The translations under genes were made by a program, and so were the position numbers. The notes beneath the pieces are model-generated. The model was given only the letters and a program-made list of their open reading frames with translations, searched no databases and was not told the origin of the DNA. A stretch of DNA of 64,000 nt from Octopus sinensis (Eukaryota): positions 95,418,001 to 95,482,000 of the forward strand of contig NC_042997.1 in NCBI RefSeq assembly GCF_006345805.1, given 5' to 3'. Each line of letters starts with the position of its first letter. Positions within the stretch are counted from its first letter, which is position 1. This document shows, piece by piece, positions 5,418 through 63,844 of this stretch.

Positions 5418-5478
<61 letters not shown>

Positions 5479-6509
5479 CATTCGACCAGCTTTAAAAACT
5501 TTGATACCCACAATTGCCTCTGTAAACATCCTTTTTTTTTTCTCTCTCTAAAAACATCACGCTTTTCTTTTTGTGAACTTACAAAACCCTAAAACTTTCT
5601 ATGAAAATCTGACTTTTCTTTGCTTCCTCCCTGAATATTCAAATATAAATGTAAACATATACTCTTTATTGTAAAAACACACCTGTTCTTCTAACTGGAC
5701 ATACAAACATCTCTAGAAAAGTCAACTTCAACCTCCACAATATTACCTTACAGGAAATATACAAACACTTTTTATTGCAATAACACAAACGCACATGGAA
5801 AAAAAATGATGATGCTAAGATTCTCTCTGGTCGAACACAACTTCTCTATTCACAAACAATACAGAACAGCCCTTCCTTAATTTTTCTTAAGCCTAATAGT
5901 AGTAAACATCTGAACTTCTTTTTTTGACCGATAGGACCCCACCTAAAAAAAAAAAAAAAAAAAATATCACTGATGGTGATGGTGATGATGGTGATGATGA
6001 TAATAATGATAGTAATAGTGCTGATAATCTATCTATCTATCTACACACACACACTCAAAGAGTTCAGCCAACACAAAGAAAGTATTATTTGACAGGCAAG
6101 AACTCTGGTGTTGAAGACAGTCAGCCAGCCAACCACCAAGCCAGCCAACGAGACAGACAGACACTACTGTGATGGTGATAATGATAAAAAAACAAAAATA
6201 ACAATAAGATACTGCTGTGACTACACATAAAACAATATCATTGATGATGATGGTGGTGATTGTCATGGTGATGATGATAATTATGATGGTAATGGTGGTG
6301 ATAATGATGATAGTCATGGTAATGGTGATGATAATAACAATAATAAGCCGACTACGGCTGCTATAATGGTACGATTATAATTGTAACGGCAATGATGGCC
6401 GTCTCCCCACGAGCCAATCAAAGCTAAAAAATGATAACATTATCGTAGCACCAAAATGTTTTTGGAAACTAAAAGGAAAACTAAATCAGTATACCAAATC
6501 GCTTGACCT

Positions 6510-9500
6510 ATGGTTAATTTGGAAGCGCGTCCCTCAGGGAAGAGCCAGCCTGGGATCGAAAAGTCACCAACTGGCACAAACCCTTCTCCGAATACGGACA
6601 TGGATGGTCACTTGAACGGGAAATCCCCCAACTCGAGCCCTCCAAGTTCACCACCACAGCCACCACAGAAAGGAAAATGTAAGCGGAACAAATGGACCCG
6701 AGAAGAGTATAAAGAAGTAATATACGCTTATTACTATGCATTAGGTAGGCCATCTCAAGAGAGACACACCGCAAACTCTTACAGTATATGGAGAACACGG
6801 AATCAAGACAGTAGGTCCTATTTGGACGAGAACAAATTAGCAATTGTGAGGAGGGATATCCTTAGAAATAACAGACTCACAGACAGTGAAATAAGTGCGA
6901 TCAAGCACGCAACGGAAAATGACATAAATATAAGACTCAAAGGAAATGAAGAATCAGATGAACAGTATTGCCCACCTCGAGGATTAATTGAAAGACTGCA
7001 ATCTGACCAAAGTACGCAAAGGCCTGAAAATACAAGAAATTCTATTGTACCTGTTAAAGATAGCCAGGAAAACGAAAAAACAACAGTAACTGAAGATCTC
7101 GCATTTGCTGAAGAACACAGAGAGTCTATGGCAGAAATGCGGCAGAAAATCCTGAATACGCTTGAAGTTGTAAGACATACAAGTATGAATGATAGAGAAC
7201 CACTTCATAAACTCTCAAATACAAACCAAAATAAAAAACAAATACAAATTGGCAACTATGTAACAAATGAAATAATACGAGAATTAAAACCTGATTTTAC
7301 CGAGTTAAATGAAATTATTTACTCTTCTGCTAGGGCAATTGAAACCAGCTGTATGCCCCCGAAAAAACAAAGAAAACAAAACCTGGGAAGAAATCAAACC
7401 TGGAGAAGTAAAATTGAAAAAGAGATTGAATTTATGAGAGGGGAAATATCAATATTAAATGAACTAATATGTGGAAATAATGTAAGATCCAGAACAGGAA
7501 GAAAGATGAAGAGAAAATTTGGATCCTCACCAAGAGAAGAACTGATATCAATAAAAGAAACGCTGAAACAAAAAGTCCAAGCAAAATCCCAAAGAATACG
7601 AAGATTTGAGAAGAGAAACAAGTTTTACAAGCAAAATAAGCTGTTCACATCCAATGCCAAAAAATTCTACAGAGAAATAGGGAAGGAGAAATTAACCGTT
7701 AAAGACCCCCCTCCCATGGAAGAAGTTCAAAAATTTTGGAAAAGTATTTGGAGTGACAAGAAGACGTACAACATAAATGCAGACTGGATTATACAAACTG
7801 AAGGATCCTACCAAAATTTACAACAAGCATGGGAAGATATCACAATAGCAGACCTAAGAAAGGCACTCACGAAGGCCCATAATTGGAAATCCCCCGGTAA
7901 AGATAGGGTGCCGAATTTCTGGCTCGCATCGCTCCCATGCGCACGCGGTAAGCTAGTTCAGCTGCTCAATGGAATTATGAGAGACCCAAAGAAAACACCT
8001 GAATGGTTAGCAAGTGGCATTACTTACCTACTCCCAAAGAATAACGAAACCAACCTTCCAAAAAACTATCGGCCTATAACCTGTCTATCCACCACGTATA
8101 AAATCCTAACATCTATCCTGGCGGAGAAAACATATGCATTCATGGAGAAGAACGATATTTTCCCCATTGAACAAAAAGGGTGCCGCCGAGGATCATACGG
8201 ATGCAAAGATCAACTGCTAATCAATCGTATGATCCTTGAGAACTGTCACAACAAGCGCAGAAATCTCAGCACCGCATGGATTGACTATAAAAAGGCCTTC
8301 GACAGTATACCGCATCCATGGATCTTGAGATCGCTGGACATCTTCAAAATTTCCCCTGTGATTTCAAACTTCCTGAAGCACAATATGTCATTGTGGAATA
8401 CGAATCTCCAATTATACCACTCTAATGGAATACTTGCCTCAGAAAATATAAACATCAACTGTGGAATTTTTCAAGGTGACTCACTTTCACCTTTAATATT
8501 CTGCATAGCCCTAATACCCCTTACAAGTGAATTAAACAGAACAGGGTATGGGTATAAAATTGCCAATAAAAAAATAAGCCATCTATTTTATATGGATGAC
8601 TTAAAACTTTATGGTAAAGACAATAATGAACTTGAAGGTCTGCGGCGCACCGTGAAAGCATTCAGCGATGACATCGGGATGGAGTTTGGACTTGAGAAGT
8701 GTGCCAAGGCCACTTTCCAGAAAGGGAAAGTGAAGACCACAAATTCAGTCGTGTTAGATGTTGACACAGTCATAAGAGAGCTTGAGCAAGAACAAACATA
8801 CAAATATTTAGGGATAAATGAAGGCTCTGGTATTCAGCATGCAAGCATGAAAGAGAAAATCAGGAAGGAATGTTATAGGAGAGTTCGTGCAGTCCTGAAA
8901 TCTGAACTAAATGCACGTAACAAGGTGTTAGCTATAAATTCCTTAGCAGTTCCAGTTGTTACTTATAGCTACAATGTGTTGAACTGGAATATGAGTGAAG
9001 TAAAGAATATAGATAGAAAAATACGCAAGCTGCTGAGTTGTAATAGGATGCACCACCCAAAGGCAGACGTAGATCGCCTTTACCTTCCCAGAGCCCAAGG
9101 AGGTCGAGGCCTGATCCAATTTGAACTAGCTTACAAAACAACCACAATTGGACTGGCCAAATATCTCGAAATATCGAATGACTGGATGCTAAAGCTCGTG
9201 GAAAATCACGAGAGACGAAAGAAGCTTCATTCTATCATAAAGGAAAGCAAAAGATTTGCTATTGATCTCGTGCAGGATACCCAAACTGAACAACCCGAGG
9301 GAAGTACGGCAACTATCGTTGCAAAGAAGGTGAAAATGATGGCAATAAAAAAAGCGCACGAGCAATTGGCTGATAGGTGGGAGGAGAAACCTCTGCACGG
9401 CAAATATGTGACCCGCAGCAAACAAGCTGATGTTGACCAGAAGCAAACCCATCAGTGGCTACGGAGCTCAGGGCTAAAAGCAGAGAGCGAAGGTTTCATC

Positions 9501-9638
9501 CTGGCTGCTCAAGATCAAAGCCTATTAACCCGGAACTACCAGGCCAATGTGATGAAAAATGGAGCAGACCCAAAATGCCGATTCTGCAACGACATGATTG
9601 AAACAGTGGACCACCTAATCTCTGGATGTAAACTCTAA
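6510..9638 (+). CDS. R4/Dong ORF, N-terminal part: reverse transcriptase and CCHC zinc knuckle
   Basis: Motifs KSPGKD, NYRPITCL, EQKGCRRG, WIDYKKAFDS, GIFQGDSLSP, HLFYMDDLKL, YKYLG, GGRGL and CRFC..ETVDHLISGC. Confidence 0.95.
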   Translation: MVNLEARPSGKSQPGIEKSPTGTNPSPNTDMDGHLNGKSPNSSPPSSPPQPPQKGKCKRNKWTREEYKEVIYAYYYALGRPSQERHTANSYSIWRTRNQDSRSYLDENKLAIVRRDILRNNRLTDSEISAIKHATENDINIRLKGNEESDEQYCPPRGLIERLQSDQSTQRPENTRNSIVPVKDSQENEKTTVTEDLAFAEEHRESMAEMRQKILNTLEVVRHTSMNDREPLHKLSNTNQNKKQIQIGNYVTNEIIRELKPDFTELNEIIYSSARAIETSCMPPKKQRKQNLGRNQTWRSKIEKEIEFMRGEISILNELICGNNVRSRTGRKMKRKFGSSPREELISIKETLKQKVQAKSQRIRRFEKRNKFYKQNKLFTSNAKKFYREIGKEKLTVKDPPPMEEVQKFWKSIWSDKKTYNINADWIIQTEGSYQNLQQAWEDITIADLRKALTKAHNWKSPGKDRVPNFWLASLPCARGKLVQLLNGIMRDPKKTPEWLASGITYLLPKNNETNLPKNYRPITCLSTTYKILTSILAEKTYAFMEKNDIFPIEQKGCRRGSYGCKDQLLINRMILENCHNKRRNLSTAWIDYKKAFDSIPHPWILRSLDIFKISPVISNFLKHNMSLWNTNLQLYHSNGILASENININCGIFQGDSLSPLIFCIALIPLTSELNRTGYGYKIANKKISHLFYMDDLKLYGKDNNELEGLRRTVKAFSDDIGMEFGLEKCAKATFQKGKVKTTNSVVLDVDTVIRELEQEQTYKYLGINEGSGIQHASMKEKIRKECYRRVRAVLKSELNARNKVLAINSLAVPVVTYSYNVLNWNMSEVKNIDRKIRKLLSCNRMHHPKADVDRLYLPRAQGGRGLIQFELAYKTTTIGLAKYLEISNDWMLKLVENHERRKKLHSIIKESKRFAIDLVQDTQTEQPEGSTATIVAKKVKMMAIKKAHEQLADRWEEKPLHGKYVTRSKQADVDQKQTHQWLRSSGLKAESEGFILAAQDQSLLTRNYQANVMKNGADPKCRFCNDMIETVDHLISGCKL

Positions 9639-9644
9639 TCACCA

Positions 9645-10142
9645 GTGGAGTATAAATTAAGACATGACAGAGTTGGCCAATATCTCCACTGGCTAATAAG
9701 TCGGCATTACAATATCAAAACTGCCGACAAGTGGTATAATCACCACCCTGAGGCTGTAACTGAAGGAGAAAATGTAACCATTCTGTGGGACTTTCCAGTA
9801 CATACAGACCGAACCATCAAGGCCAATAAACCAGATATTGTTGTGAAAGACCAAAACAATAAAGTTTGCTTATTGATCGACATGAGCATCCCCTGTGATC
9901 ATAATATCTCAGCGAAAGAGTTTGACAAGCTCAGAAAATATAAAGACCTACTCATTGAAATTGAGAAAATGTGGCATCTCAAGGCGGTTACAATACCAGT
10001 GATCGTAGGAGCACTAGGAATGATCAAGAAGAGAACCAAAAATTATATGAGAATGATCCCTCGCTTACCATCCCTGCAAGAAGTGCAAAAGATTGTCTTA
10101 ACTGGTACATCACACGTATTGAGAAGAGCATTTTCGATGTGA
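9645..10142 (+). CDS. R4/Dong ORF, C-terminal restriction-like (PD-D/ExK) endonuclease, in frame after a premature TAA
   Basis: Motifs RHD, ILWDF, KPDIVV..LLIDMSIP, KYKDL and PVIVGALG. Same frame as 6510 (offset 3135 = 3x1045). Confidence 0.92.
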   Translation: MEYKLRHDRVGQYLHWLISRHYNIKTADKWYNHHPEAVTEGENVTILWDFPVHTDRTIKANKPDIVVKDQNNKVCLLIDMSIPCDHNISAKEFDKLRKYKDLLIEIEKMWHLKAVTIPVIVGALGMIKKRTKNYMRMIPRLPSLQEVQKIVLTGTSHVLRRAFSM

Positions 10143-10743
10143 GAACTGTTGCTGCTCATGTATTTTAATTTAACTTTAAAAAAAAAAAAAATGAACGAAC
10201 TACTGAGTTTGGTTTAATGGCCTACCAATGTATACTATGAGTTTCTTTGCCCTAGGAGTCGGGAAGACACTCGGCAAGAAATGGAAGCAAATTTGAAAGA
10301 AGAAGAAAAAAAATAATAATAATAACAATAATAATAATTTCTTAAGTAACCTGAATATGGATTTTGTATTAATCTTTAAGAGAGATTAATACCAAATCTA
10401 TCGTCTGTTTACGTAAGAATTTTTTATTTGTATCTCAACTAAAACAGCTGAGTTCCTGAAGTAGATCCAGCGGAAATTTACCCTGACTACATATGACGCC
10501 ATTTAGCCTACAGGTACCCCCAAATTTCATTCAATATATTTTCAAATCTGATGATTACTACAAGCGTAGGAAAAAGCTAATTGAAATTTATGAACATTAC
10601 TAAATATTTTTTTAAATTTTTAACTCACTTCAACATTGCATAATTTGTTTTTTAAATACAATACTAAAAAGCGTTAAAACCAGACCATGTTGTAAATTTG
10701 TTCAACCGATATATTTTTCTGTACACATTTACACAAATGCGGA

Positions 10744-41771: not shown

Positions 41772-42569
41772 TCAGTCATTTGTAGGACCATTCATAAGGA
41801 CTAGTTGAATATCATTTGTGCGTTGTTCAGCAGGACTCACACCAAATTTAAGACAAATATACAAGCACAAAATAGAACCACCACATACGAACACTCCTAT
41901 AGATATCGCAATGGTAGCTGGAAGGTTGCGAGTGTTAGATGGAGTAAGCCTGGAAGATATTGGATAATCTCTAGTTGTAGTGCTTTCATTTCCCGATGTT
42001 AAAGTTGTCTGCATAGGCATTGAGCGAGCATTCGCAGAAACGTATTCAGTAATTGGATATTTTTTCACAATCTGTGAATTCAGGACTGATCGCTTCAAAA
42101 TCTTCGTCTCTCGTTTCAATTTATAATCCGCTACATATTGTGCCATACCAAAATTCTCCTCGAATCTTCGTAGTGAGTTCTGATTATTCTTATATCGACG
42201 GTTAGAAATAATTACGGGTGCCCCCTTTTTTAATTTCTGTGGAGTGATAATGGAAGTATACGGTGGTGTACTGCTAACCAATATGCAGAGGATACTTCTT
42301 TTAGAAATACACCTCAAATATGAGTCTCTTAAATCGGCAAACATGCATCTCCTCAAACAATTCTGCTTCAGATTAATATGGATATCGCGATACTGAGGTC
42401 CTCTATAATTTAAGTCTTCAACTGTAGATTGATTTTTTCTCGAGGAGAGTATTCTAAATTGTCTGCCATAAACACCTATTTCGGAGGTATTTAGTTCTGG
42501 AGATATTTTCAAAACGTTGCACACCACAAGTAAATATTGAGCGAAAAGGACGAAAGCAAACATTCTCAT
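41772..42569 (-). CDS. Uncharacterised type I membrane glycoprotein, 265 aa (paralog A)
   Basis: Hydrophobic N-terminus, Ser/Thr-rich stalk, TM segment IAISIGVFVCGGSILCLYICL and short tail. Collinear similarity to the ORF at 62576-63187. Non-repetitive open frame in AT-rich DNA. Confidence 0.78.
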   Translation of the reverse strand: MRMFAFVLFAQYLLVVCNVLKISPELNTSEIGVYGRQFRILSSRKNQSTVEDLNYRGPQYRDIHINLKQNCLRRCMFADLRDSYLRCISKRSILCILVSSTPPYTSIITPQKLKKGAPVIISNRRYKNNQNSLRRFEENFGMAQYVADYKLKRETKILKRSVLNSQIVKKYPITEYVSANARSMPMQTTLTSGNESTTTRDYPISSRLTPSNTRNLPATIAISIGVFVCGGSILCLYICLKFGVSPAEQRTNDIQLVLMNGPTND

Positions 42570-43289
42570 AGCGTGAAATATGTTGGGGAAACCTTTCTCT
42601 TCGAACCATAAATCAATTTCTATAAGCTAGTTATTAGACAGATGAGTGATTATATAAATTTTCCATTTCCAATTTAAATAATTGAACATTCGAAACATTT
42701 GTATATGAAATAATAGAATTGATCTTTTGCCAAAATGTGAAACAAATATGAAATAATAGAATTGTCCAATAACAATTCTAGTAACACAAAAACCAAGATA
42801 TGTTGACAATATGTAATGACTGAGGAACGATGCATTTATGTACAAATTAAACGGCATATTCGCCACGGTTTCGACTCCTAATTTAAATTATTTAATTTCA
42901 TTTATGAGAACAATTTTATTTCGGAACTGAAGTTCTGAGCATATGCCTGTTAAAAGAAAGACAGTTAAGGTACATCAGAATGCATTATATTTCCCTTTAC
43001 TAAAAAATTAATGGGTTTAGTCACACTTCAAATACCATTAACCCATTCATATAGCTTATTTGGTAATAAGCTCTACAAAAGAAAAAAAAAACTGTAGGTT
43101 AATGAATCCCAGTGCCGATCGTATATATTGATATAACTAAGCATTTTCAAATAGCTATTTGTATACCCTAATCTGAATGATGTAGTTGTTCCCTTTTTTT
43201 CTTTATAACTGATTGTTTAGTTGAGAGCAGCGTAAAGCACTATATTATGCCAAACAACATGTGATAAACAATGAGAAAATAACCCATTG

Positions 43290-44097
43290 AGATCTTTACC
43301 TTTTGACCGACAGATGGAAAAAATAATTTTTTGTAACCAAACACTTTCAAACTTCGGACACTGGTAGAATGTGTCATATAAAACATCTTTTACTCGTAGC
43401 GTTTTAGAGAAAAGCTTATATTTAGGAAGTTACTTCATGTTAAAGTTGTCGTATTTCGGTAATTTCAACCAATTAATGACGTGTATTCAGCTGAAGAAAA
43501 TTACTGCCGTTGTTTGTCAACAACAACTATAGGCAGTGTATGTTTCGCTTGTCACTGTTATTCATGACATCGTTCATGCGTTTGTGCTGGTTTTAGCATT
43601 TAGGGGTTAGGGTTAGGCTTTTAGGGTTACGGTTAGGCTTTTAGGGTTAGGGTTTGAGGCTTAGGGTCTTAGGGATAGTATTTTAGGGTTAGGGTTTTAG
43701 GGTTAAGGTTAGGGTTTTAGTGTTTGGGTTTTAGGGTTAGGGTTTTAGTGTTTGGGTTTTAGGGTTAGGGTTTTAGGGTTAGGGTTAAGGTGTTAGGGTT
43801 AGGGTTTTAGGGTTGTTATAAAAAGCAGTAACAAACGTAATATACACCGCCGGAAGCTTTTGTTGACAAACAACAGCAGTAATGTCGTATATTCAAGTGA
43901 ATACACGATATTAATTGGTTGAAATTACCAAAATACGACAACTTTAACATGAAATAACTTCCTAAATATAAGCCTTTCTCAAAAACGCTAAGAATAAAAG
44001 ATGTTTTATATGACACAGTCTACCAGTGTCGGAAGTTTGAAATTGTTTAGTAACAAAAAATTATTTTAAAAATCTGTCGGTCAAAAGGTAAACAACC
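43290..44097. mobile_element. Long-TIR non-autonomous DNA transposon (Merlin-like) with telomeric-repeat core
   Basis: ~270-bp inverted arms. Exact 8-bp TSD ACCCATTG (43282-43289 / 44098-44105). Right end ..AACC. Confidence 0.85.
43595..43815 (+). repeat. Interstitial telomere-like repeat (TTAGGG and TTTTAGGG variants)
   Basis: Many TTAGGG/TTTTAGGG units are seen directly. Confidence 0.92.
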
Positions 44098-44798
44098 ACC
44101 CATTGCTTCTCAGAAGTGTATATATATATATATATATATATATGAGACGAGAAACAGAAATACGTTCACGTCACACACATGATGCTTATCTAAAATATAT
44201 ACATATATATTGCGATGTATTATGAATTGGATTGTCTTCTCAAACAGAAGACGAGGAGTCCCGCATTGCTTAAGATCTAAAAGCAAAGATCAAGCCTAAT
44301 ACCTCAAACAGTTTCAGGATATCAGCTGATCCAAACTTTGTGAACACTGAAACAGTGCTGTCAGGATTGATTCTTTCATACATAAACGGATGCAGGATGT
44401 GATGGATATGCTTACTCAAAGACTATAACGGAAAGTACTCATCTCATCTAGTGTACTCTTTGTATATATACATATACTCCACTTATTCATATGGTAAATA
44501 CTATATATTGACTTGACATTTAGCCTACCTATACAGCGACGGAGAAGTCATAACTAATGTAACTTTGTTACAAAGTGAAACTAGACAAGTACTATGATCT
44601 CGCTCGCTGTAGGATTGTTATCTCTCCTGTCAGTGCATTGACATGTGCTTCTTTGAGGCCTTAAAAGCTTTCGACTTTTAATTTTAGCAATGTAGGTGCT
44701 CCCCAGCAACATCAGTCACAATTAGTGACCATTGAACTTTTATTATATAGTTTTACATTGCTTGTAGCCGCCTTTGTTATTTTATCACTCTCTCTCTC

Positions 44799-44833
<35 letters not shown>

Positions 44834-44873
44834 ATATGTATATATGTATATATATGTGTGTGTGCATATATGC

Positions 44874-44916
<43 letters not shown>

Positions 44917-44949
44917 GTGTGTGTGGAGGTGTATATATGTATATATACG

Positions 44950-45838
44950 ACATTAGATGATGATATTTTGAATGCAAGCATTGAAGAAAACTCAGTTAAT
45001 GCATCAAAGAAGTTGCAGAGAAATTGGAATTTCCCCAAGGTATTGTTCACGGACACTTTGTGGACATTGGGTATGTTTCACTTCATGACATTTGGGTGCC
45101 TCACAAACTGTCAGAACAAAACTGCATGGACTGGTTTTCTCTCTGATATAGAAACACAATGAAAATAAAATTTACTTGAAACAAATGGTATCTGAAGATG
45201 AAAAATGAAGTGTTTACCATTATATAGCGAGAAAAATATTCGGCAGTAGACGTGAGGATCCTACAAAATAGCTTCCGAAGTAGAATATCAATTAAAAAAT
45301 AACCATCACTTGTGTATGGTGGTATTTCAAAGGCATTATTTACTATGCGCCAATCCCACAGAATCATAACCTCAATGCTGATGAGTACAACCATCAGCTA
45401 GCAATTATAAATAGAAAAATTAACGAATTGAGGCCTGCGCTCTCCAACACGGGTTGTACTCCATCAGGACAATGCCTCACCCCATGTGTATTTAGTTACC
45501 TGCACAAAGTTGCCTGAACTTGGATGTAATCTCTTATCTCATCCAACATACTCACCTGACATTGAACCAACCATGTGACTATGATTTGTTTTCGTCTCTG
45601 CAGAACTGTCCAAAAGAAATATCAATTTACGATTTAGATGATATTCAAACCCACTTCGATAACTTCGTTTCCTCTGAAGCAAATTAATTTTATGCCGATT
45701 ATTTTATGCCTGCTAGGTGGACTAGGGCCATAGAAAACAATGGAAATTACATTAACGAATAAAGATTGAAGTATGTTTTAAAATGTCTTATGTATTGCTT
45801 TTAAAGAAAGCGTTAAGACCTTTTTGGTCAAACTCATA
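44950..45838 (+). pseudogene. Decayed mariner transposase with 3' TIR
   Basis: Fragments LDDDILNASIEEN, WVPHKL, VSEDEK, LHQDNASPH and HPTYSPDIEPT. TIR-like end CTTTTTGGTCAAACTCATA. Confidence 0.85.
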
Positions 45839-46089
45839 TATGTATGCATGTATATATGTCTTTAGGGGTATATATATATGGCTTGTGTTAGTAATACCAG
45901 CGATTATAATTATTTTTATTTTATCGCAATTTGATTTGTTTACATATTTCTCGATAAACTATGAGCGCCAGGCGATATACCAGAATTCCCTAGTGTTGTC
46001 GGGACGTTCGGAGTCTGCGCAGTGATATGATTAGTTAGGGAGAGTAAATCATTAGACGCACATGCTTCTAGTGAGTTAGGATCCCAGAA

Positions 46090-46180
46090 AAACAGGGTCT
46101 CACTGAAGAATTCTCCCTGAGCAAATAAATTATCTTTATTGTTGAAAAGAAAGAAACTGCAGTCTGAGAATTACCGGTTT
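46090..46180 (+). ncRNA. Type I hammerhead ribozyme, copy 1 (predicted cleavage after C46164)
   Basis: Stem I TCTCA/TGAGA; CTGAAGA 46103-46109; extended stem II; GAAAC 46153-46157; palindromic stem III ACTGCAGT; GTC triplet. Confidence 0.75.
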
Positions 46181-46485
46181 AGTAAATGTTTTTATCTTCA
46201 TTTCACTTAATTTATCAAGCTTCTGTATTCCTAACACATATTTCGCCTTAATGTACTGATATATGAAAAATATATGGCTTGTGTTAGTAATACCATCGAT
46301 TATAATTATTTTTATTTTATCGCAATTTGATTTGTTTACATATTTCTCGATAAATTATGAGCGCCAGGCGATATACCAGAATTCCCTAGTGTTGTCGGGA
46401 CGTTCGGAGTCTGCGCAGTGATATGATTAGTTAGGGAGAGTAAATCATTAGACGCACATGCTTCTAGTGAGTTAGGATCCCAGAA

Positions 46486-46576
46486 AAACAGGGTCTCACT
46501 GAAGAATTCTCCCTGAGCAAATAAATTATCTTTATTGCTGAAAAGAAAGAAACTGCAGTCTGAGAATTACCGGTTT
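46486..46576 (+). ncRNA. Type I hammerhead ribozyme, copy 2 (predicted cleavage after C46560)
   Basis: Same fold as copy 1. Distal stem II AGCAA/TTGCT is fully paired in this copy. Confidence 0.78.
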
Positions 46577-46881
46577 AGTAAATGTTTTTATCTTCATTTC
46601 ACTTAATTTATCAAGCTTCTGTATTCCTAGCACATATTTCGCCTTAATGTACTGATATATGAAAAATATATGGCTTGTGTTAGTAATACCATCGATTATA
46701 ATTATTTTTATTTTATCGCAATTTGATTTGTTTACATATTTCTCGATAAATTATGAGCGCCAGGCGATATACCAGAATTCCCTAGTGTTGTCGGGACGTT
46801 CGGAGTCTGCGCAGTGATATGATTAGTTAGGGAGAGTAAATCATTAGACGCACATGCTTCTAGTGAGTTAGGATCCCAGAA

Positions 46882-46972
46882 AAACAGGGTCTCACTGAAG
46901 AATTCTCCCTGAGCAAATAAATTATCTTTATTGATGAAAAGAAAGAAACTGCAGTCTGAGAATTACCGGTTT
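46882..46972 (+). ncRNA. Type I hammerhead ribozyme, copy 3 (predicted cleavage after C46956)
   Basis: Same fold as copy 1, with one mismatch in distal stem II (TTGAT). Confidence 0.73.
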
Positions 46973-47139
46973 AGTAAATGTTTTTATCTTCATTTCACTT
47001 AATTTATCAAGCTTCTGTATTCCTAGCACATATTTCGCCTTAATGTACTGATATATGAAAAATATATGGCTTGTGTTAGTAATACCAGCGATTATAATTA
47101 TTTTTATTTTATCGCAATTTGATTTGTTTATATATATAT

Positions 47140-47205
<66 letters not shown>

Positions 47206-48415
47206 CACACTTTTATCTATACACACACATACACACACATGTATATATATATATCCATATATATACATACGTATATAATTGTTAAAGAAGACAACAGACC
47301 ATTGAGTTATGGTAAACATCTCATGTCGTATACAATATTATCATTGGAAAAATTCTAAGTCTTGCAGCTGTTTCTGGGATATCCCTGAGTATGGGATATT
47401 CCGTGACAAGTTGGGAAAATAGGGAACATAAGAATGGTATATATTAATGAGTTGATGACATAGAAGAAAAGAGTAAAAGAATAAGGAGATGGAAAGAAAA
47501 AAGAAAAAGAGAAAAAGAGCATAAATGTTCATAGTTCAACTTACCGTTGCTGAAGAAACAAGAGCATAAGTCCTTAGGCGCAATTCTGCATAGATCCATG
47601 TAGGTTAAATACCAGATATAGTAAACATCCAGAGGAAAAAGACGCGAACATATCGATGTTCAATAGCAGACTGGTAGCGGAGGTGGCTTGTAAGTGGTAA
47701 AAGGAAAGTATAGAAAATATATATAGATAGATTGAGGTGGTAAAAGGAAAGTATAGAAAATATATATAGATAGATTGAGGTGGGGAGGGAATTTATAGAC
47801 TGGCTTTAGGAAAAAGTAAAGTGTATAGGGGTATAGTGTCTAAGAATTGTGTATCGGTTAGCCGAGAAGAAAAGGGAGAGGATTAGGAGGTAGAGGAAGA
47901 TAGGGTAAAAAATAGGGCAAAATGAAAGGAATTTAAAGAGAGCAGAATGTGTCTGTGGTAGTCTTAATGACTACAGCTGTTGGGAAGAAGATCTAGTAGT
48001 AAATAGCTGTGTCTGTTTTGGCTAAGGTCAGTAGTTGTAGAGTTATTTTTAACAAACAGTTATTTTTAACAAACATGTTATGGGTGTATAGGTAGCCGAG
48101 AATGGAGGAGCTATTTGAATGTTAATTTATTTATGAGTGGGAGTTATAGTCAGAGGTTAGGGGATTTATTGGATTATAGTTTTAAAATAAATTTAGGTTA
48201 AATTAAAGAATTAATATTTATCTCATAATTGATGAGGTAAGGTAGATTGAAGAGATTTAATACATAAGGTATAAATAAGAGATATAGTGATATAGGATAA
48301 ATAGAAGAGGTAAAAAGGTGTATGTGTTAACCCACAACTCACCACAATTGCTTAATAAATACAACGGGGCCTTCCCTACGTGTAAGCACAAATTCTTCCG
48401 CACTTTTAAATTCTT

Positions 48416-49030
48416 TCATAGATCTAAATGTAAGTTCACCCCACGCAAATAGTACCCAATTACAAACCCCTTGTTGTTGGTGAAGCAGAGATCCAATATA
48501 TTATTCGCTCTGGTTGTTCGGAGCACCATTTGCTCAATGAATAGGGCATAGGTGAGGGTGAGCAGGGACTCCACCAGTACTTGTTTGCAATGAGTCATTC
48601 CTAAGAGCATAAGGCCCTCGGGCCATTTGACAGTAGAGAAGTTGAAATCACCCATAAGAAACACATTCACATCTTGTTCCAGTTTCATGAGGGTGTCTTT
48701 TATTCTTCTGAGGCAATCTTCAAATTTATCCGCGTGATTTGTAACATTCGATGGGCGATATGTACTGCATATGATTATATTATGTTGTCTTATGGATATA
48801 TCTTGAGTGTCATTTACTGAATTTCAGTATGACAGTAGTACCTGGAGTGAGAGGTCCTCACGGATGTATGCAGCAACTCCACTATGGTTGCTTTCCTTTC
48901 TGTTTGTTCGCAGTATACTATATTTTGGTAAGTGTACTCCTGCATCCCCTATAAGGTAAGTTTCCATGAATGCTATGCATTAGGGCTTGATTGCATGCAG
49001 CAAGGTCTCTCGGAGAAAAGATTTTGCTTT
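48416..49030 (-). pseudogene. Apurinic-like endonuclease remnant of a CR1/L2-group LINE
   Basis: VFLMGDFNF, TRANNILDLCFTN, and upstream GVAAYIRE and IICSTYRPS motifs. Contains stops and frameshifts. Confidence 0.8.
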
Positions 49031-49885: not shown

Positions 49886-51658
49886 ATGTATATTGTTGTG
49901 ATTATAAATATCGCGGTAAATGCCAGTAGCAATCCAAAAACCTTCTTTGCCCATGTCCAGCGGAATTCCCGCTTGAACAACCAGATTGCAACGTTGGTAG
50001 ACTCAACAGGCGTATCGATTGAGGACCCTTATCAACAGAGTCAATTAATTGCCGAGGCCTTTTCAACTATTTTCAAACGAGATGATGGTCGTGAACCCCC
50101 TCCATTTGATAGATCGGTACCTCCAATGCTCCGATTGGTCATCACGCGGGACGAAGTCAAACGTGTTATTCAAGGCCTCGATGTCAACAAGGGTCACGGC
50201 CCTGACGGCATACACCCACGGGTTATCAAAGCGTTGGCTCCGGTCATCTGCGAGCCCTTAACACGACTATTCAATATGTCATTGGCGACGGGTGTTATAC
50301 CTGCAGACAGGAGAACAGCGATAATCTGCCCAATTTTAAAGAAAGGGAGCCGTGAAGACCCGCTTAACTACCGACCGGTTTCCCTTACATCAATAATCAG
50401 CAAGATGTTCGAAACCATCCTTAAGAAAAGTATGATGCTCCACCTCCTAAACACAGCCTCTATCTCTGATTCCCAACACGGCTTCGTGCCGAAGAGATCA
50501 TGCTTGACCAACTTACTAGTAATGGAAGAATTGGTGACGCGCATCCTCGATGATAGTGATGCTGTTGACATCGTTTTATTGGACTTTGCCAAAGCTTTTG
50601 ACTCGGTAAACCACCGCCTATTACTTGTCAAGCTTCAAGCATATAGTTTCCATCCGGATATTATACGATGGGTTGGTGCCTTCCTCTCAGATCGCTCCTT
50701 CCAAGTCCAAGTTAATGGTTCGCGGTCCGACGTCTCCAGTGCGAGCAGTGGCGTGCCTCAAGGTTCAGTGCTTGGGCCCTTGTTGTTCTTAGTCTTCATA
50801 AATGACTTGCCCGACGACCTCACGCAACACACCCTTCTATTTGCCGACGATATCAAACTGGTCGCTCCCCGCGGTAATATAGAGGATCTTCGTCGATGTC
50901 TCCACCAAATTTGGAAGTGGTCTAACGATTGGGACCTGTGTCTGAACGTGTCAAAGTGCTGTCATCTGCCTGTCGGCTCTACTCCTGCAACTCAACTTGA
51001 TTTCGAGCCGGGTCGTCTGCTGCTGGAGAGGACCGATCAGGTAAAGGACCTGGGTATCTTGGTGGATTCCTCCTTTTCGCCTTCGGCCCAGTGCGTCCAT
51101 GCTGCCAACAAAGCACGTGGAACACTGTTCTTGATTCGACGGTCATTCGGAATGCTCACAGCAGCCATATTCCTACCATTCTATGTCACGCTGGTGAGAT
51201 CCATATTGGAGTATGGGATTCAAGTCTCTTCTCCTTATCTCCTCAAAGACATACAGTATCTCGAAAGAGTCCAGAAGCTGGCTACCCGCATGGTTCATGG
51301 TCTCAAAAATTTGTCCTACGAAGAAAGGCTGAGGACGCTCGACCTTTATTCTCTTGAAAAATGCCGCCGCCGTGGTGATCTCATTCTCGCCCACAACATC
51401 ATAAGCGGAAAGTGTAACCTCTCGAAAGAGCTGTTCTTCACTCCTGCTCCAGAGCGTCGGCTGCGGGGTCATTCCGAAAAGCTCTACCTGCGACGATTTC
51501 ATCTCAATCGAAGGAGAGGAGCTTTCTCCGTCTGGGTTGCGGATCCGTGGAACAAGCTGCCAGACGAGATGGTGAAGATGCCGACGACCGCTTTGTCCAA
51601 AGCCTCCCTGGACTTCAAGTGGCCTGAACTCTTTACAGGAACACCACCCTGTACTTAA
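49886..51658 (+). CDS. Reverse transcriptase of a 5'-truncated CR1-type LINE (no endonuclease retained; the annotated start lies in flanking DNA)
   Basis: Motifs GPDGIHP, NYRPVSLTS, QHGF, LDFAKAFDSV, GVPQGSVLGP, LFADDIKL, DLGI, RRRGDLI, RGH and WNKLP. Confidence 0.93.
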   Translation: MYIVVIINIAVNASSNPKTFFAHVQRNSRLNNQIATLVDSTGVSIEDPYQQSQLIAEAFSTIFKRDDGREPPPFDRSVPPMLRLVITRDEVKRVIQGLDVNKGHGPDGIHPRVIKALAPVICEPLTRLFNMSLATGVIPADRRTAIICPILKKGSREDPLNYRPVSLTSIISKMFETILKKSMMLHLLNTASISDSQHGFVPKRSCLTNLLVMEELVTRILDDSDAVDIVLLDFAKAFDSVNHRLLLVKLQAYSFHPDIIRWVGAFLSDRSFQVQVNGSRSDVSSASSGVPQGSVLGPLLFLVFINDLPDDLTQHTLLFADDIKLVAPRGNIEDLRRCLHQIWKWSNDWDLCLNVSKCCHLPVGSTPATQLDFEPGRLLLERTDQVKDLGILVDSSFSPSAQCVHAANKARGTLFLIRRSFGMLTAAIFLPFYVTLVRSILEYGIQVSSPYLLKDIQYLERVQKLATRMVHGLKNLSYEERLRTLDLYSLEKCRRRGDLILAHNIISGKCNLSKELFFTPAPERRLRGHSEKLYLRRFHLNRRRGAFSVWVADPWNKLPDEMVKMPTTALSKASLDFKWPELFTGTPPCT

Positions 51659-62575: not shown

Positions 62576-63187
62576 TCATATGCCGCTCAAAGGTGGTCGT
62601 ATAGTGGCTAGCTCCATCGCATTGTCGCGTAGTTCTGGATAATAGACCGCTGGATTCTTCAAACGTATGTATACACAATAAATGCATATGGAGAATATAA
62701 CTATTCCCAAACATACTGCAAGGATACCTACAATGTAGGAATGATTAGCTTTGGTATGAGGATTATTGGTAGTTGTCGGGTAATCAGCAGCAGTTGTAGT
62801 AGTTCCAATTTGTGAAGTAAAATTGGTGGGATCAGACATGGTGGAATCATTTGGAGAAACACGTTCAATTGCTGGAGAATTTGTCACATTCGTTGAATTC
62901 AAAATCGACCGCTTGAAAATCCTCGCCTCTCCTTTCGGTATATCATATTTCATATCAGTCACTTCCGGGGTAACGTTCGGCTTACACAATACAGTGTTAT
63001 TATCAAAAGAGTAGTATTCGTCTCCTTTGCATTTCAAGTTTCCAACCGTTAGATTTTTCAACTCGTGACGAATTTTCAGCGGCTCGCCATAAACAGCTAC
63101 ATTAGAATTATTAAATTCTGGATATAATATCGCGAAAGCGAGAACCACAAATAAGCGTTGAAACATAGTAAAAGCGAAGGAAGCCAT
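62576..63187 (-). CDS. Uncharacterised type I membrane glycoprotein, 203 aa (paralog B)
   Basis: Signal-like N-terminus, about nine NxS/T sequons, Thr-rich stalk, TM segment YIVGILAVCLGIVIFSICIYCVYI and a ~30-aa tail. In-frame TAA 3 codons upstream of the ATG. Paralogous to 41772-42569. Confidence 0.82.
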   Translation of the reverse strand: MASFAFTMFQRLFVVLAFAILYPEFNNSNVAVYGEPLKIRHELKNLTVGNLKCKGDEYYSFDNNTVLCKPNVTPEVTDMKYDIPKGEARIFKRSILNSTNVTNSPAIERVSPNDSTMSDPTNFTSQIGTTTTAADYPTTTNNPHTKANHSYIVGILAVCLGIVIFSICIYCVYIRLKNPAVYYPELRDNAMELATIRPPLSGI

Positions 63188-63844
63188 TGCGTGTTAATTA
63201 TTTCGACAGTGTGTAAACCCGTACGCTGAATGAAAAATATACTGCGCTTTTTTGACAGTTACCACTTGTATTTCATATATATATATATACAGGCGTGTTT
63301 TGGGCTATGCCACTTTTAAAAGAAATTGCGTTTGCAGTACATCCTTTGAAAAGTAGGCTGTCCTTACATATAAAATAATAGAACTTACTTTTTATTTTCG
63401 TTAGTATTATAATAATATATTTTTCGATATGTCGCAACTTACGAACAAAACAATTACATTCATATCAAACGGTTCCTTGAAGCCGGTTTCGAATCTCTAA
63501 TTATCTCATTTCTTTTCTCTCTTATTGTATGGGGAAAGATCCTTAATATTCCGATGCATGACAGTGCTACATAATTGAGAGAAATATACCTGGCTCCTTT
63601 TTATTATCGGCATGAAGCCTTAAATATAGAGGGGACACTACATGGACAGACAACACAAACGGGGGTACATATAACGATTAACGAAGATTTATGAGGTGTG
63701 AAAAAATAATGATAATGAAATGGCTTTCTTCCCACCAAAGTAGAAAGTTGCATTTTACAGTTTTTACTGTTCAGTTTATATTTATTTGTTTTACTGTTCA
63801 GTTTGTATCTTTTTTTTTTAATATACCAGAAAACGTGTGACATC

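Follow-up and report, generated by a model that had tools for sequence, protein, structure and literature searches.

The 64,000-nt stretch of Octopus sinensis DNA analysed here (the window) contains a 396-bp tandem array that is best read, with a probability of about two in three, as a young copy of an abundant, non-coding Octopus family of non-LTR retrozymes, likely copied by a Penelope-type machinery into TA microsatellites. That the 396-bp repeat represents a mobile family of the retrozyme type is very likely, and mobilisation of this family by a Penelope-type element is probable. Predicted hammerhead cleavage in vivo is evenly poised between occurring and not, and the abundant circular RNAs of the 396-bp unit, likewise predicted, are somewhat doubtful. 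On sequence criteria, the repeat is a metazoan non-LTR retrozyme that lacks two typical features of its class, namely the G10.1-C11.1 pair and a strongly self-paired circle. The size of the unit, its low GC content, the type I hammerheads in tandem, the abundance of the family and the palindromic stem III all support the retrozyme reading put forward in the original prediction, which had been made from the letters of the window.

Structure of the array

TRF places the array at 45874-47135, with a period of 396, 3.2 copies, 99% matches and no indels, and so bears out the three full units and partial fourth, about 99% identical, that had been described. The full units differ from each other at 4, 4 and 1 positions per 396 and vary at four sites only: unit 1 has 27G, 86C, 269T and 361A, unit 2 has 27T, 86T, 269C and 361G, and unit 3 has 27T, 86T, 269A and 361G, while the partial fourth unit carries 27G. 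Position 269 (46142, 46538 and 46934) thus shows three bases in three units, and the family has no variant at 5% there; this three-way difference may be a hotspot or polishing noise. The GC content of the unit is 0.343. No credible ORF was seen, as had been predicted: the longest stop-to-stop frames lying wholly within the array measure 72-76 aa, and the two of these that were scanned had no Pfam match. A search for further copies of the unit elsewhere in the 64-kb window found none.

Both ends of the array lie within TA repeats, and no target-site duplication is readable inside (TA)n. The flanking (TA)n tracts of the original prediction hold on the right, where a long (TA)n runs from 47129 to 47172 and is followed by (TG)n; the left tract is only T(AT)5, and three of its AT repeats match the start of the unit itself.

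Table 1. Features of the 396-bp array and its edges, in window coordinates.
Feature	Position	Strand	Basis
Tandem array: three full 396-bp units and a partial fourth of 69-74 bp	45874..47135	+	TRF, unit comparison
Unit 1: private changes 86C, 269T and 361A relative to the family majority	45874..46269	+	Unit comparison, family contigs
Unit 2: rare T at position 27; distal stem II intact	46270..46665	+	Unit comparison, family contigs
Unit 3: rare T27 as in unit 2; private 269A breaks one distal stem II pair	46666..47061	+	Unit comparison, family contigs, folding
Partial unit, stopping where the family has its right end (position 69-74; exact point obscured by TA microhomology)	47062..47135	+	Unit comparison, X4 contigs
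Left (TA)n, short, running into the unit start through microhomology	45869..45879	.	Sequence
Right (TA)n, then (TG)n microsatellite; putative insertion target	47129..47196	.	TRF
Type I hammerhead motif 1, predicted cut after 46164	46098..46169	+	Descriptor, sequence
Type I hammerhead motif 2, predicted cut after 46560	46494..46565	+	Rfam, descriptor, folding
Type I hammerhead motif 3, predicted cut after 46956	46890..46961	+	Descriptor, sequence
First predicted 396-nt monomer, from one cut to the next (second monomer: 46561-46956)	46165..46560	+	Motif geometry, circular folds
Strand predicted to block stem II (positions in unit 2) through a 10-bp helix with its 5' strand, 46507-46516	46431..46440	+	Pair probabilities
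Central GC-richer hairpin (unit 3 coordinates)	46755..46801	+	Folding: z -1.95, 8/200 shuffles as good

The hammerhead motif

Hammerhead positions are given here in the standard numbering. Every full unit (3/3) carries the series UCUCA-CUGAAGA-(stem II)-GAAAC-UGCA-GUC-UGAGA, with CTGAAGA starting at 46103, 46499 and 46895 and C17 at 46164, 46560 and 46956, exactly the cut sites that had been proposed; the spacing of C17 likewise upholds the geometry of exact 396-nt monomers. The second motif comprises stem I (UCUCA/UGAGA), the core CUGAAGA, a long stem II, GAAA and the palindromic stem III ACUGCAGU, with A46506 and A46548 forming the base of stem II. Stem I does extend through an internal loop, as had been noted, reaching about 46486/46576, with the correction that its lower part holds an A.G mismatch (read off the sequence); stem II has both internal and terminal loops. 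The distal stem II strand as originally given, TTTATTGCT, is accurate for unit 2 only; at its variable C, T stands in unit 1 and A in unit 3, so that each of these two units differs from the description at one base. The canonical type I features C3-A9, G12-A14, A15.1-U16.1 and H17 are present in all units. The canonical G10.1-C11.1 pair is absent, its place being taken by A.A, or by an extra A and a U-A pair.

A type I descriptor, composed after the motif had been seen and permitting its stem II mismatch, matches the three sites of the array; both strands of the 64 kb are otherwise free of matches, and the descriptor matched 0 of 20,000 dinucleotide shuffles of one unit. The Rfam model Hammerhead_1 (RF00163), which the original prediction had named as a check, gave a match at 46493-46566 in a 181-nt scan, with 21.2 bits and an E value of 0.0054, which is below the gathering score of 34; it was not among the matches in a 5-kb Rfam scan at E<=1.

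The base of stem II can be drawn in two ways, either as A.A followed by 4 bp, or with an extra A after A9, a U10.1-A11.1 pair and a bulge; in constrained folds, the latter drawing is 3.8 kcal/mol worse than the former. Positions 46506 and 46548 are without a variant reaching 5% in all four sequencing runs considered below, so the non-canonical base is the state of the family and not local decay. The A.A that had been flagged at 10.1-11.1 is present, with the extra-A drawing as its alternative. The extra-A drawing fits the Penelope hammerhead consensus CUGANGAH (PMC4209133), and one Schistosoma family in an alignment from the supplement of that paper has U10.1-A11.1 after an extra A. A mismatch at the same place is also found in the axolotl HHR_Amex2, where it is U.U as opposed to the A.A of the octopus, and this ribozyme cleaves 22% as a monomer and better as a dimer (PMC7229834). 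The mismatches that a passage of PMC3088659 gives as tolerated at 10.1-11.1 do not include A.A.

Predicted folding

The active fold of the monomer lies 8.9-12.1 kcal/mol above the ensemble, and stem I forms with a probability of only 0.001-0.17. In the double-hammerhead topology, the motifs of two neighbouring units fold jointly. The double hammerhead gains 7.8 kcal/mol over a pair of single ones, a preference of about 8 kcal/mol that agrees with the suitability of the palindromic stem III for dimeric folding claimed at the outset; nevertheless, it is 16-21 kcal/mol above the minimum. The blocker helix of Table 1, which engages the 5' strand of stem II, has 9 of its 10 pairs at probabilities of 0.83-0.97 in the circle, and the pair tested in linear RNA stands at 0.99. 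In the monomer circle, 63-64% of the bases are paired, and its stability does not exceed that of its shuffles (z of -1.06 and -0.95; 100 shuffles each). In the stems of the central hairpin, the three variants listed all keep the pairing, changing G.U to A-U twice and C-G to U.G once. Predicted folding counts against fast cleavage, the models being ones that leave out tertiary contacts, co-transcriptional order and protein.

The family in public sequencing runs

Between 61 and 94% of the unit's sampled words are present in 20 of the 24 runs listed (11 studies, six organism labels). One permuted unit, 46414-46809, was mapped against the contigs of four of the runs, here labelled X2, X4, X7 and X20, and met 1203 and 635 contigs in the two deep runs (X2 and X4, respectively), 18 in X7 and 3 in X20. 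All four runs hold a contig that joins the end of the unit to its start (back 396), so a tandem (or circular) period of 396 is family-wide. Summed depth on the unit is mostly 1e4-1e6 in the deep runs, which points to an abundant repeat, summed depth not being a copy number. The share of contigs running on into unlike sequence is 0 in X2 and X4; in X20 it is 0.59 of the three contigs, whose loose ends resemble, by eye, diverged versions of the unit. X7 and X20 are RNA runs by guess only and may contain DNA, so they are given no expression reading; each has a contig over the unit junction, and X7 has one over the cut site. The depth of X4 dips over 46470-46497, a dip of the kind that filters can produce.

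Six family polymorphisms reach 5% in X2, and the sole one within the core, an A->T change at the free position N7, is the most frequent of the six (34%). Variation at N7 but not at 12 other core positions is weak when taken alone, given six polymorphisms per 396 nt. Minor sister variants also occur. For example, one has TCTTA in stem I and CCGATGA as its core (contig depth 2805 in X2, with further occurrences in X4 and X7), and another reads TCTTA-CTGACGA-G, with a canonical G10.1 (depth 1842). A loose end in X4 retains GAAACTGCAGTC and continues with TAAGA, the complement of TCTTA; compensation in stem I (TCTTA/TAAGA) is accordingly a likely property of the sister variants, as judged from two halves that lie on different contigs. 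At least two sister subfamilies of roughly 85% identity can be distinguished, one with a U4C core and one with the canonical G10.1; U4C is a known natural hammerhead variant of reduced activity (PMC3088659). Further loose ends suggest that more distant relatives of the 396-bp family exist.

Compared with this family, the units of the array depart from the majority at only 1-3 bases in 396, which marks the copy as young. The three sites private to unit 1 (86, 269 and 361) are without a family variant reaching 5% in the four runs. At position 27, G makes up 99.9% of the family depth in X2 and X4 and is also the base of unit 1 and of the partial unit. T27, being rare and common to units 2 and 3 alone, is therefore a derived base that points to a later local duplication. 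One series of passes round one circle should not yield this pattern, so a rolling origin is not evidenced, and the three-plus-partial structure loses the significance of a print of rolling reverse transcription that had been attached to it. The sharing of T27 is more simply explained if the middle unit was afterwards duplicated or converted, or if the template was a heterogeneous multimer, and part of the array likely originated in one of these ways; the 3.2 copies are compatible with rolling reverse transcription, yet are no evidence for it.

A fixed right end and the search for a helper

Twenty-one X4 contigs, which need not equal 21 loci, leave the unit behind 46739 (position 74) and enter (AT)n with an agreement of 1. 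This group, listed for one of the four runs, is the best supported among the loose ends listed, to which another 52 loose ends come in addition. The array copy also stops at position 69-74, 174-179 nt past the last predicted cut site. Since the array copy and the 21 contigs stop at the same point, the right end is fixed and not permuted, and the permuted start points expected in the original prediction give way to a single right end. On the left, no comparable group appears among the loose ends listed.

The fixed right end at position 69-74 probably represents the start of reverse transcription, and its position at (TA)n is as expected, by analogy, for Penelope-type internal priming at TA targets. 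For example, a Penelope-like protein of Anolis primes on uncut RNA, at fixed sites that lie within the RNA and downstream of its hammerhead; the purified protein cuts AT-rich DNA and gives products with a fixed 3' and a variable 5' end; and the ribozyme of the element cut only with the protein present (PMC11167929). Anolis Poseidon resembles the octopus end in both its internal priming downstream of the ribozyme and its AT-rich targets, and differs in distance, the octopus end lying about 175 nt past the cut as opposed to about 85-92 nt in the Anolis element (by subtraction from figures in PMC11167929). Neptune and Naiad elements are described as preferring microsatellite targets, (TA)n included, and Naiads as surviving in cephalopods only as remnants, while 31 recently active Penelope-like families are recorded for O. 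vulgaris (PMC13282606); the annotated Penelope-like families number 190. Further literature drawn on comprises 10.1101/2021.04.23.441226, PMC8557442 and PMC6962438.

A Pfam scan of the window covered 113 frames, comprising 112 of the 169 frames of >=70 aa and one shorter frame; the other 57 were set aside by eye as microsatellite-derived, as repeats of array frames, or as overlapping longer ORFs. No GIY-YIG or Penelope domain occurred among the 113 frames, and neither they nor the array contain an ORF of reverse transcriptase plus GIY-YIG between pseudo-LTRs. Rfam over 44000-49000 returned only microsatellite-driven miRNA and snoRNA matches. A tRNA-derived SINE was considered and rejected, with 0 ARAGORN genes and neither tRNA nor 5S in Rfam over 44000-49000, searches that decayed heads can escape. 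In pattern scans, all 17 metagenome matches were isolated 18-mers with neither an upstream core nor wider similarity, and none of 24 viral matches had a four-pair stem I or similarity to the unit.

Proposed mechanism and alternatives

Under the retrozyme reading, read-through transcription of the + strand would yield a multimeric RNA, predicted to be cut after GUC mainly as a double hammerhead of neighbouring units. Cutting would be slow or aided by protein, because the stem II base is non-canonical and the upstream strand competes; it would release 396-nt monomers, which a host ligase may circularise. A Penelope reverse transcriptase-endonuclease would then nick a (TA)n tract, cDNA would begin at one set position inside the unit, some 175 nt downstream from the cut, and more than one unit would be copied, from a circle or an uncut multimer, until synthesis stopped at TA microhomology. 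The middle of the array would later have been duplicated or converted locally, an event that has left its trace in the units, its mechanism being conjectural. It is tempting, if speculative, to go further and to picture a fixed-site, (TA)n-targeting octopus retrozyme whose dominant recent subfamily swapped G10.1-C11.1 for a hammerhead that is damped and blocked by a helix, one that needs dimer formation or the binding of the Penelope protein in order to cut; as a whole, this extended account is rather unlikely.

The fixed (TA)n end and the CUGANGA-H core match Penelope hallmarks, and would also suit a unit that is the pseudo-LTR of an autonomous Penelope-like element, the array being then a 5'-truncated insertion of terminal repeats. 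Such an origin would have precedent in Xenopus, where 24 of 57 retrozyme families resemble known elements, 21/22 of them Penelope-like (bioRxiv 10.64898/2026.07.22.740005). It is nonetheless improbable for the octopus unit, in view of the zero run-on into unlike sequence in both deep runs and the unit-unit joints in 4/4 runs; nor did the 113 frames scanned in the window contain a Penelope ORF, but short contigs drop rare forms and a few coding masters may exist. A different departure would be to regard the hammerhead as a dead or near-dead relic, with the unit spreading at the DNA level as a minisatellite, through unequal exchange or extrachromosomal circles, and with no RNA step today. The A.A or U-A stem II base throughout the family, the predicted blocking helix, the circle folded no better than shuffles, the shared private T27 as a DNA-level duplication at the array, and the inactivity of 8 of 9 Xenopus dimers tested (bioRxiv 10.64898/2026.07.22.740005) can all be cited in its favour. 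A dispersed 3.2-unit copy with one fixed (TA)n end would be left unexplained, however, and the variants sit at N7 and keep the G.U/A-U pairing of the + strand, which makes this minisatellite account quite unlikely.

A helper other than Penelope would be called for if the unit were a retrozyme that borrows the reverse transcriptase of a microsatellite-targeting LINE (Dong/R4-like) or of another non-LTR element. The window does hold a Dong/R4-looking reverse transcriptase element between (ATA)n/(AAT)n tracts, and Dong-R4 accounts for 1129 recently active insertions in O. vulgaris (PMC13282606). Against this, the unit and the 3' end of that element share only an 18-bp AT-rich match (E 0.87), the array terminates in TA dinucleotides and not in AAT, and multi-unit inserts carrying hammerheads are the Penelope pattern, all of which renders a LINE helper very unlikely. 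Finally, a chance motif or an assembly artefact might be invoked from the copy number at the locus, which rests on the assembly, and from position 269 with its three bases in three units; the 0/20,000 shuffles, the tandem joints in four independent runs out of four and the distinct private changes in the units reduce this to a very slight chance.

Relation to known elements

Read as a retrozyme, the octopus repeat closely resembles the metazoan non-LTR retrozymes of Cervera and de la Pena 2020 (PMC7229834), above all the 350-390-bp units of Mytilus and the axolotl HHR_Amex2, in being a non-coding tandem unit within 150-450 bp and of GC below 50% (34% here). Also shared are a single type I hammerhead in each of two or more successive units, the lack of any LTR, PBS or PPT seen, and a 2-bp stem III with a palindromic tetraloop, and some of the mussel circles are predicted to block the ribozyme, much like the blocker helix of the octopus. 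The octopus unit differs from the retrozymes of that paper in its A.A (or extra A plus U-A) base and its long two-part stem II, and in a circle no more folded than shuffles, as opposed to the typically self-paired circles of retrozymes. Moreover, its host is a cephalopod, and its fixed right end at (TA)n has no counterpart in the descriptions drawn from PMC7229834.

Among the hammerheads of Penelope pseudo-LTRs (Cervera and de la Pena 2014, PMC4209133), the consensus CUGANGAH is matched by the octopus start CUGAAGAA, and the Drosophila and Aedes variants share its palindromic stem III; these elements differ from the octopus family, in which the unit is without an ORF and the main family without G10.1-C11.1. 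The Xenopus study that treats retrozymes as Penelope pseudo-LTR derivatives (Li, Clavereau, Pollet, bioRxiv 10.64898/2026.07.22.740005) sampled 31 vertebrates, 3 insects, 1 coral and no mollusc, and one of nine predicted retrozyme dimers from Xenopus cleaved in vitro. The hammerhead satellites of newts (cited in PMC7229834) and Dolichopoda (PMC2837043) are also tandem and of the dimer type, with changes at 10.1/11.1, whereas the octopus copy, a short and dispersed array, sits in a microsatellite and does not form a long block of satellite DNA.

No report of a cephalopod retrozyme was found in the literature; the supplement of PMC7229834, preprint supplements and repeat databases may contain one. 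The words hammerhead, ribozyme and retrozyme are absent from the main text and one supplement of the 2026 O. vulgaris repeat annotation (PMC13282606), and for the giant squid a count of 235 Hammerhead_1 matches is given, without further analysis. According to a review (PMC7761336), animal retrozymes carry no motif pointing to their helper element. While the retrozyme class is already known, and a family of similar size has been characterised in mussels, a fixed end together with a TA target would be such a pointer. In addition, it is in the commonest form of the family that the ribozyme is least canonical, a fact relevant to the question of whether spread requires cleavage and circles. If the extended account given above held, the fixed (TA)n end would name the footprint of the helper enzyme on a retrozyme, and the canonical and U4C sisters would offer a natural series in which the effect of self-cleavage on spread, favourable or adverse, could be compared.

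Neighbouring sequences

Other repeats surround the array. A decayed mariner at about 44960-45838 (Pfam Transposase_1 at 45296-45514, E 1.5e-9) ends about 35 bp before it, an interstitial telomere-type (TTAGGG)n tract with a higher-order period of 76 bp lies 2 kb to the left (43599-43814), and a perfect 43-bp tandem duplication is found 560 bp to the right (47694-47783). Non-LTR sequences are also present in the window. A near full-length non-LTR retrotransposon at 6507-10139 (+), which we take to be Dong/R4-like, has a 1043-aa frame (RVT_1, E 4e-29), one stop, and then 167 aa with cysteine/histidine and endonuclease-like motifs, and lies between (ATA)n at 5422-5477 on one side and, on the other, AAT repeats near 10310-10340. 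A 590-aa LINE reverse transcriptase frame (49886-51655, +; RVT_1, E 1e-32) lies in a GC-richer island, and a separate endonuclease fragment is located at 48419-48823 on the opposite strand (-).

Finally, an ORF at 41775-42626 (-), 3 kb from the array, matches, with 100% identity across 151 aa, a protein that bears the name of Octopus sinensis, which identifies the window as Octopus DNA, and corresponds to an uncharacterised Octopus gene with a predicted hydrophobic C-terminal segment. Its open frame of 284 aa exceeds the annotated protein of 170 aa, and a paralogous stretch, 37% identical over 78 aa, occurs at 62702-62935 within 62579-63193 (-).
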